64,000 nt of DNA. Origin: Pseudomonas phage phi9_PA9. Below, one piece after another: positions 42,443 to 43,177 of this stretch. The stretch's first letter is position 1, and each line of letters starts with the position of its first letter. Where the stretch lies: the sequence record PQ093904.1. The stretch is one strand, 5' to 3'. The notes under the pieces are model-generated. The model did no database searches and was not told where the DNA came from. It worked only from the letters and a program-made list of their open reading frames with translations. Made by a program: the position numbers and the translations under genes.

Positions 42443-43177
42443 ATGACTTACATTGTTAATGATGGTAAAGTCATGATTGCTGATTGTCTATTAATTACAC
42501 GTGATACTGCTACTGATGCACTTGGACGATTACCAGTGTTAGACAATAAGTATTTGGACCTTAATGCTAGCGCTAAAGGGGTTGATATTTATTATAATGA
42601 TTGTCACAAAATCATATTTCACCCAACTGCTACATGGCGGGGTAAAAGAATTAAAACACTCGCTTTTGCTGGAACCACAGATAATGTTTATGATTTACTG
42701 AATTCACTTACAGCTGGTGTTGATTTAAATGACTGGTTTAAAGTTGAAGTAAATATCCTGCCAATTTCAGAACGCAGGATATTTAATGGTAAAACTTCAA
42801 TGATGTATACCATGGAGGATGGCCGCATTTATACAGCTATTCTCAATAATGTTGATATTGACATTACTGAGAAAAAATGGGCACATTTAGGTAGTGGTGT
42901 GGATGCAGTGAATAGTGTAATTGATTTTATCCCTAATTGTAATAATAATGGGATAATTGAACTAACTGCACTAGAAGCATTTGCTATTGCTTGTGCACAT
43001 ACGCACACAGTAAGCCGTAAGTTTGATTATTTTATCCATGCTACTGGTGAGTATAAACAGAATCAAGAACTATCTACTAGACAACTTAAATGGATCTTAG
43101 CTCGTATTCAGAAACGTATGGATCTTACATGTATCTACACTGATGTAAAATATGCTAATGATGTATGGAGTGAATAA
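42443..43177 (+). CDS. HslV-like peptidase (proteasome beta / Ntn-hydrolase T1 family)
   Basis: N-terminal MTYIVNDGKVMIAD (HslV MTTIVSVRRNGHVVIAGD; Thr immediately after Met as nucleophile), LAFAGTTDNVYDLL (IAGFAGGTADAFTLF), AHLGSGVDAV (IAIGSGGPYA), DLTCIYTD (DICIYTN); RBS GAGGAGG. Confidence 0.65.
   Translation: MTYIVNDGKVMIADCLLITRDTATDALGRLPVLDNKYLDLNASAKGVDIYYNDCHKIIFHPTATWRGKRIKTLAFAGTTDNVYDLLNSLTAGVDLNDWFKVEVNILPISERRIFNGKTSMMYTMEDGRIYTAILNNVDIDITEKKWAHLGSGVDAVNSVIDFIPNCNNNGIIELTALEAFAIACAHTHTVSRKFDYFIHATGEYKQNQELSTRQLKWILARIQKRMDLTCIYTDVKYANDVWSE

Follow-up and report, generated by a model that had tools for sequence, protein, structure and literature searches.

The 64,000-nucleotide stretch of DNA analysed here (the window, to which all positions below refer) comes from Pseudomonas phage phi9_PA9 (PQ093904.1), a phiKZ-like Pseudomonas aeruginosa jumbo phage with approximately 91 % nucleotide identity to many Phikzvirus genomes. 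The gene at 42443–43177 on its plus strand encodes a protein of 244 amino acids (aa), the orthologue of PHIKZ289 (gp289) of phage phiKZ, with which it shares 79.8 % aa identity; the name gp289 is used below for the protein of both phages. We consider it probable, at about 0.72, that gp289 is a divergent proteasome-like N-terminal nucleophile (Ntn) hydrolase of the MEROPS T1 type, belonging to a small family found only in phiKZ-like jumbo phages and in related viruses known from metagenomes. The original prediction, made from the sequence alone, had called the product an HslV-like peptidase. The predicted fold, the conserved residues and a profile bridge through a small phage family place it in the proteasome/HslV superfamily of Ntn hydrolases with an N-terminal Thr, but on sequence comparison it is not a bona fide HslV.

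The open reading frame was recovered as predicted, with 244 codons on the plus strand and the N-terminus MTYIVNDGKVMIAD (beginning MTYIV). Its ATG is the earliest possible start downstream of an in-frame stop codon, and a strong Shine-Dalgarno sequence, GAGGAGGA (42432–42439, plus strand), can be read directly from the DNA 3 nucleotides (nt) 5' of it. Thr2 therefore lies directly after the initiator Met, as had been proposed, and a propeptide is impossible. Besides the translation and the identity to PHIKZ289, the coding sequence is supported by its membership of the protein family phrog_25842 and by the ratio of non-synonymous to synonymous substitution rates (dN/dS) between the gene and that of phiKZ. 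This ratio is 0.12 despite a dS of about 1.0, which shows that the gene encodes a real protein under purifying selection. Among the records listed, orthologues are labelled only PHIKZ289, 'phage protein' or 'hypothetical protein'.

An AlphaFold2 monomer model of gp289, built from 12 sequences, has the four-layer alpha-beta-beta-alpha arrangement of the proteasome-type Ntn fold, with helices H1 and H2 both present and short. A Foldseek search of the PDB with the model gave 263 matches at E <= 0.001 (best E = 3.6e-6), and each of the best 50 of the 263 was a 20S proteasome subunit or Anbu. The fold of gp289 is therefore of the proteasome-type Ntn class, in agreement with the original prediction, which had named the absence of such a fold from the predicted structure as a refutation. 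In the BFVD collection of viral models, 24 proteasome-fold models matched at E <= 0.001, some of them phage proteins already named proteasome subunit.

Sequence comparison led to the same superfamily in two steps. The best PHROG of gp289 is phrog_25842, of unknown function (E = 2e-142), and a weak match was obtained to phrog_1040, annotated 'peptidase HslV family' (E = 2.8e-5 for gp289 and 4e-6 to 5e-8 for other members of its family). A profile of this small phage family was made from eight phrog_1040 proteins of about 157 aa, including SPN3US gp1, pSal-SNUABM-04 ORF1 and proteins of phiEaH2, a Jedunavirus and an Elvirus. When the gp289-family profile was aligned to it with hhalign, the probability was 98.4 % (E = 6.5e-15, 147 columns), making the small family the closest detectable relatives of gp289, and the alignment paired T2 with T2, D14 with D14, K56 with K30, G77 with G53 and G150-S-G with G118-S-G. 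The small-family profile in turn matches 112 PDB sequences, the best 60 of which are all proteasome beta subunits, HslV or BPH. In the best of these matches its TT...D...K pattern falls on Thr1, Asp17 and Lys33 of the beta5 subunit and its GSG on Gly128-Ser129-Gly130. The assignment of Thr2, Asp14, Lys56, Gly77 and Gly150-Ser151-Gly152 is thus supported transitively.

The small family and gp289 have in common a Met-Thr start without a propeptide, the Asp, Lys, AG and GSG motifs, a phage location that is frequent in nucleus-forming jumbo phages, and the lack of an accompanying HslU gene (PMC7823757). They differ in size: the small proteins have about 150–160 aa, a spacing of 16 between the catalytic Asp and Lys, and no C-terminal extension, compared with 244 aa, a spacing of 42 and a conserved tail of about 48 aa in gp289. 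BLAST did not join the two families even at E <= 10, and the PHROGs collection keeps gp289 in its separate phrog_25842, so that despite the homology it does not belong to the phrog_1040 family. Fuchs, Alva and Lupas 2021 (PMC8665760) named a family, PPH, with which the small family is probably identical. PPH proteins were described as lacking helix H2 (PMC8665760), which in the gp289 model is present together with H1.

Relatives of gp289 form 11 clusters in a collection of 5.8 billion sequences. When 1.84 billion representatives were searched exhaustively with a profile, 44 proteins of approximately 65–245 aa were returned, nearly all starting with Met-Thr; all were divergent relatives, with no evident canonical HslV among them. 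One distant relative (P0039) gave no match when searched against phages with tblastn. Residue conservation was counted in an alignment of 43 full-length relatives with identities to the query down to about 17 %. Only six columns are invariant in all 43: M1, D14, K56, G77, G150 and D195. At position 2, 41 of the relatives have Thr and the other two have Ser.

On the plus strand of the window, Thr2, the predicted nucleophile after removal of Met and the equivalent of proteasome Thr1 by conservation and by alignment to the small phage family and 20S beta5, is encoded at 42446–42448. Asp14 (equivalent to Asp17) lies at 42482–42484 and Lys56 (Lys33) at 42608–42610, both assigned by their invariance and by profile–profile alignment. 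Gly77 of the AFAG motif (42671–42673) corresponds to the oxyanion-hole Gly47 and is aligned to GFAGG of HslV and VAG of the small family, while Gly150-Ser151-Gly152 (42890–42898), of which Gly150 is the invariant member, corresponds to Gly128-Ser129-Gly130 and pairs with a GSGG motif both in HslV and in the small phage family. Asp195 (43025–43027), on the strand after helix H4, is a possible counterpart of Asp166 by its conservation in 43/43. Fuchs et al. 2021 gave Thr1/Ser1, Asp17, Lys33 and Gly47 as the pattern of the proteasome family (PMC8665760), and the conserved residues of the gp289 family match this catalytic pattern.

Two regions give the family a shape of its own. The interval between Asp14 and Lys56 (aa 15–55, 42485–42607) holds a family-specific insertion of about 25 residues, recognized from the spacing, from a predicted local distance difference test score (pLDDT) of 41–59 and from a gap in the profile–profile alignments; the Asp–Lys spacing is 42 in gp289 and 22–42 across its family, where HslV, the proteasome and the small phage family all have 16. 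In proteasomes, the region adjacent to this insertion lines the substrate channel. After D195 follows a C-terminal extension (aa 196–244, 43028–43174) of about 48 aa, with 36–59 aa across the family, in which the model secondary structure and conserved residues mark an amphipathic helix at aa 212–225; the residues kept in the extension are L210, Q214, I218, Q223 and R225. The 'two insertions' relative to HslV noted earlier thus resolve into a single clear insertion, the one behind the Asp–Lys spacing of 42 instead of 16, and this extension.

The motif correspondences that had been proposed from the sequence alone fared unequally. Independent profile alignments paired AFAGTTDN (aa 74–81) with GFAGGTAD of HslV, and LGSGV (aa 149–153) with its IGSGG, and the glycines G77 and G150 within them are kept in 43/43. 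The third correspondence, of CIYTD (aa 232–236) with the C-terminal CIYTN of HslV, has to be given up as a chance match, because its columns are highly variable across the family; it also lies in a tail with a pLDDT below 50 and beyond any HslV profile alignment. In a BLASTP comparison of gp289 with E. coli HslV, the HslV sequence having been checked against the PDB, this 'CIYT' piece was all that was returned (E = 0.043 for one comparison, non-significant).

Thr as the second residue permits removal of the initiator Met by methionine aminopeptidase, and we therefore infer that the host enzyme strips Met1. As with E. coli HslV, Thr would then become the exposed residue 1 with no propeptide involved. 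The alpha-amine and hydroxyl of this Thr1 would then attack peptide bonds, assisted by the conserved and aligned Lys56 and Asp14, and the backbone of Gly77 (equivalent to Gly47) would form the oxyanion hole. The insertion between Asp14 and Lys56 is predicted to adjoin the substrate channel and, together with the C-terminal helix, may set a specificity and/or a mode of assembly particular to the family. The most likely role would be early proteolysis of selected host or phage proteins, in takeover of the cell or in counter-defence, and not in virion maturation. Maturation of the phiKZ virion is the job of the serine protease gp175.

Published datasets on phiKZ show that the gene is expressed early and is dispensable in the laboratory. 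The level of PHIKZ289 mRNA rises during the first 10 min (PMC10914614). Its protein was detected in Grad-seq (PMC10914614), as it was by size-exclusion chromatography with mass spectrometry (SEC-MS) after enrichment of material above 100 kDa (PMC10449902). In transposon insertion sequencing (TnSeq), 12 and 28 distinct insertions were recovered in PHIKZ289, which was accordingly classed as non-essential, and the gene lies within a broad non-essential arm, orf184-304 (PMC12676376).

Several results weigh against a proteasome-like peptidase. The confidence of the model was moderate (pLDDT 76, predicted template modelling (pTM) score 0.74), with low-confidence segments at aa 17–29, 43–54 and 234–244, and its TM-scores to solved subunits were 0.4–0.5. 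The Pfam proteasome model PF00227, a search for which the original prediction had proposed as a check, was not reached by gp289, by the PA1C and Viktualia orthologues or by any of the 43 relatives, and there was no other Pfam match; no NCBIfam model matched any member of the gp289 family. Nothing significant came from PDB sequences, whether these were searched by phmmer with gp289 alone or with profiles of 8 and 43 members. Ser at position 151, the Ser129 equivalent, is present in only 20 of the 43 relatives, though it is nearly universal in the phiKZ clade, and GSG is absent from the syntenic orthologues, being replaced by FGCAE in PA1C and IEGYN in Viktualia. The Asp of the DVxTGG motif of the small family falls opposite T187 in the profile–profile alignment, not opposite the invariant D195. 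In phiKZ, the soluble Grad-seq signal of PHIKZ289 peaks in light fraction 3 (PMC10914614).

The orthologues in PA1C (L001:4001-4678) and Viktualia (L002:3923-4621) retain Met-Thr, the Asp and the Lys. The replacement of their GSG may mean either that Ser129 is dispensable in the gp289 family or that activity has been altered or lost in some lineages.

It is possible, though we consider it unlikely, that gp289 is an Ntn enzyme other than a general peptidase, working as a monomer or small oligomer: either a sequence-specific ligase or transpeptidase resembling connectase, or a small-molecule amidohydrolase, with an immune signal, a cell-wall amide or a metabolite amide as conceivable substrates. 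The Thr/Asp/Lys/Gly core is common to all such enzymes (PMC8665760), Ser129 is not kept family-wide, the soluble protein is found mainly in light fractions, and the gene lies in an accessory, defence-related arm of phiKZ. The archaeal connectase is a monomeric ligase of proteasome fold without H1 and H2, with a helical specificity insertion between strands S3 and S4 (PMC8665760). It resembles gp289 in having an insertion near the active site of an Ntn proteasome fold, and the Asp–Lys insertion of gp289 is near the site of the connectase specificity element. However, this insertion was modelled with low confidence, so that a cover over the active site is not established, no particular alternative substrate is indicated, and connectase was not among the top structural or sequence matches of gp289. 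The closest structural and sequence relatives are all peptidase-type proteasome homologues, which favours the proteasome-like peptidase.

Quite unlikely, in our view, is a functional equivalent of HslV (ClpQ), forming stacked hexameric rings that capture host HslU, or displace host HslV, for ATP-dependent degradation. The likeness to HslV consists of the Ntn fold, a Thr that Met removal would expose in an N-terminus without propeptide, and motifs of the GFAGG and GSGG types in the same order and register. HslV was the sole non-antibody family among the sub-threshold PDB matches of the family profile, in the correct register (E of about 0.8–1 only, in phmmer as with the profile), the hhalign comparison of the gp289-family profile with E. 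coli HslV alone (85 %, E = 5.8e-6) spanned the H2-GSG-H3 region, and one homologue carries a JGI pipeline label, HslVU peptidase subunit. Assembly data from phiKZ can also be read in this direction. Three SEC peaks were seen in replicate 2 after the >100 kDa enrichment (PMC10449902), and Grad-seq has a second, local maximum in fraction 5, where the phage RNA polymerase of about 300 kDa runs (PMC10914614). According to SEC-MS there are thus several assembly states after this enrichment, but the main soluble Grad-seq peak is the light one, and the Grad-seq and SEC profiles together are ambiguous on a ring. In Grad-seq, 57 % of the protein is in the pellet (PMC10914614).

Against an HslV equivalent, every sequence-level HslV model failed: there was no significant direct sequence match to HslV, and no HslV, Pfam or NCBIfam model was matched. 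HslV was not singled out by the Foldseek ranking, and 20S beta, Anbu and BPH scored structurally equally well or better. HslV is a compact subunit of about 175 aa; the insertion and the helix-bearing extension of the 244-aa gp289, with its short H1 and H2, therefore make its architecture distinct from that of HslV. There is no HslU-like gene adjacent to the peptidase gene or in the window. A Walker A motif was found in just one protein of the 64 kb, the BCS1-like AAA+ ATPase (38794–40320, plus strand; PF00004 and PF08740), which is the homologue of PHIKZ286 with 98 % aa identity. The earlier reading of this ATPase about 2 kb upstream as not HslU-like was correct.

With 20S beta and Anbu, gp289 shares a C-terminal helix after the last strands (PMC8665760), but identity to 20S beta, Anbu and BPH is 8–17 % over the aligned core, its H1 and H2 are much shorter, it lacks a propeptide or an alpha-type partner, and its family is restricted to phages. 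RPC and DPH are divergent PPH relatives with a C-terminal extension, reported by Fuchs et al. 2021 only from proteobacterial genomes (PMC8665760). Compared by description only, they have the C-terminal extension in common with gp289, and RPC lacks H2.

A distinctly improbable variant is that the gp289 family forms a jumbo-phage-specific branch of the proteasome family with its own, non-HslU partner or assembly, an early degradation machine of the phage directed at particular factors of host defence or translation. The C-terminal helix could in that case dock the ribosome-associated BCS1-like gp286 or the always-linked gp287/gp287.1. It is very improbable that gp289 is a catalytically dead protein of proteasome fold that serves as a scaffold or as a decoy, such as one blocking host HslU or some other partner by binding to it: inactive subunits do exist (alpha and several eukaryotic beta subunits, also among the structural matches) and GSG is lost in PA1C and Viktualia, but Asp14, Lys56, Gly77, Gly150 and Thr/Ser2 are kept in 43 very diverged sequences, which argues for retained catalysis.

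Of the genes around that of the proteasome-like hydrolase, the BCS1-like ATPase gene is linked to it in phiKZ and PA1C and was absent within 8 kb upstream in the diverged metagenomic phages L004 and L008. In phiKZ, 70S ribosomes were reported to carry gp286, with cross-links to the stalk proteins (PMC10449902), and gp286 sediments in heavy Grad-seq fractions (PMC10914614). As an obligate partner of gp289 it was rejected, given the loss of linkage in the diverged loci and the reported location of gp286 on ribosomes. The AAA domain of the ATPase was matched in two pieces, at aa ~230–288 and ~407–466, which implies an insertion of about 115 aa inside the ATPase domain. The only neighbours found upstream of the peptidase gene in all loci examined (PA1C, Viktualia and three metagenomic phage contigs) are homologues of gp287 and gp287.1, of unknown function (40681–41750, plus strand; tblastn of the window neighbours against L001, L002, L004, L005 and L008). 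This linkage may reflect functional coupling or merely a conserved order of the genome.

The peptidase gene is part of a block, gp288–gp290 (41892–43689, about 1.8 kb), in which aa identity to phiKZ is 74–81 % and dS is 0.5–1.2, compared with 93–98 % identity and a dS of 0.07–0.18 in the flanks. Since dS is also high and dN/dS is 0.12–0.23 across gp288–gp290, the block is a recombined mosaic patch, and the comparison points to a less closely related phiKZ-like lineage as its source. On the same values we rejected diversifying selection as an explanation of the divergence. The gp290 homologue (43180–43689, plus strand) has a GTG start 3 nt past the stop codon of the peptidase gene, which suggests translational coupling. 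Its product matched the TYW3 methyltransferase family weakly and below the threshold (PF02676, E = 0.002, 17.9 bits against a cut-off of 27). Farther downstream of the block, a divergently transcribed region holds six tRNA genes (45832–55633, minus strand): Thr-TGT, Asn-GTT, Asp-GTC, Met-CAT, Pro-TGG and Leu-TAA.

A terminator-like hairpin, AAAGCTCTCC-TTCG-GGAGAGCTTT followed by ATTT (42381–42408, plus strand), separates the homologues of gp288 and gp289; it has a perfect 10-bp stem and a T-rich tail and closes the gene upstream of the peptidase gene. The early-promoter motif of phiKZ, TATATTAC, occurs 11 times in comparison with 8.9 expected matches, i.e. without enrichment, and not upstream of the peptidase gene. 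Scans for sigma-70-type promoters gave matches below the chance level. A search of the window for a second proteasome-like paralogue found none.

The original prediction had regarded a peptidase of this kind as unusual in a phage. This is not the case, as a search at E <= 1e-3 found the small 'peptidase HslV family' in no fewer than 62 phage records, among them those of SPN3US-like and Erwinia jumbo phages, of phage EL, a P. aeruginosa jumbo phage, of Jedunavirus and of Xylella phage Prado, and the phage-borne proteasome families PPH, AAH and CPH have been named by Fuchs et al. 2021 (PMC8665760). The nucleus-localised protein RAY gp116, described as 'HslVU family', is no more than a candidate homologue of either phage family. 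The BFVD models A0A481W4S6 (phage Psa21, 165 aa) and F8SJG7 (PhiPA3 protein 331, 161 aa) were weak structural matches to gp289 (E 0.02–0.04), and from these models it is possible that some phiKZ-related phages carry a second, small proteasome-fold protein beside the gp289 type.

True HslV, by comparison, appears from these searches to be essentially absent from phage genomes. When phage genomes were searched by tblastn with E. coli HslV, the only matches were records of host DNA deposited as phage. Several of these, such as OR845448.1, OR851086.1, AGRM01000004.1 and OR844988.1, contain true HslV and look like host chromosome, being short fragments or Salmonella contigs. A survey of 'phage HslV' that took such records in phage collections at face value would go astray.

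No established view is overturned by our results, as phage-borne HslV-like peptidases were known before. What seems to be new is the recognition of the phiKZ-group protein gp289 as a proteasome homologue. Iyer et al. 2021, two recent jumbo-phage reviews and the phiKZ omics papers make no mention of it as a protease or proteasome homologue, and in the phiKZ omics data PHIKZ289 is labelled 'phrog_25842 unknown function'. The gp289 family widens the diversity of viral proteasome homologues by a branch with an insertion predicted to adjoin the substrate channel and a conserved C-terminal helix, and both lineages of P. aeruginosa jumbo phages would carry such enzymes, EL the small type and the phiKZ group the gp289 type. 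For most early accessory genes of phiKZ, which serves as the model of nucleus-forming jumbo phages, a function has yet to be assigned. The proposed assignment to the proteasome-type threonine hydrolases, with the catalytic centre intact, gives PHIKZ289 and its orthologues a concrete, testable hypothesis of function, for which phiKZ transposon mutants and proteomic data are already available.

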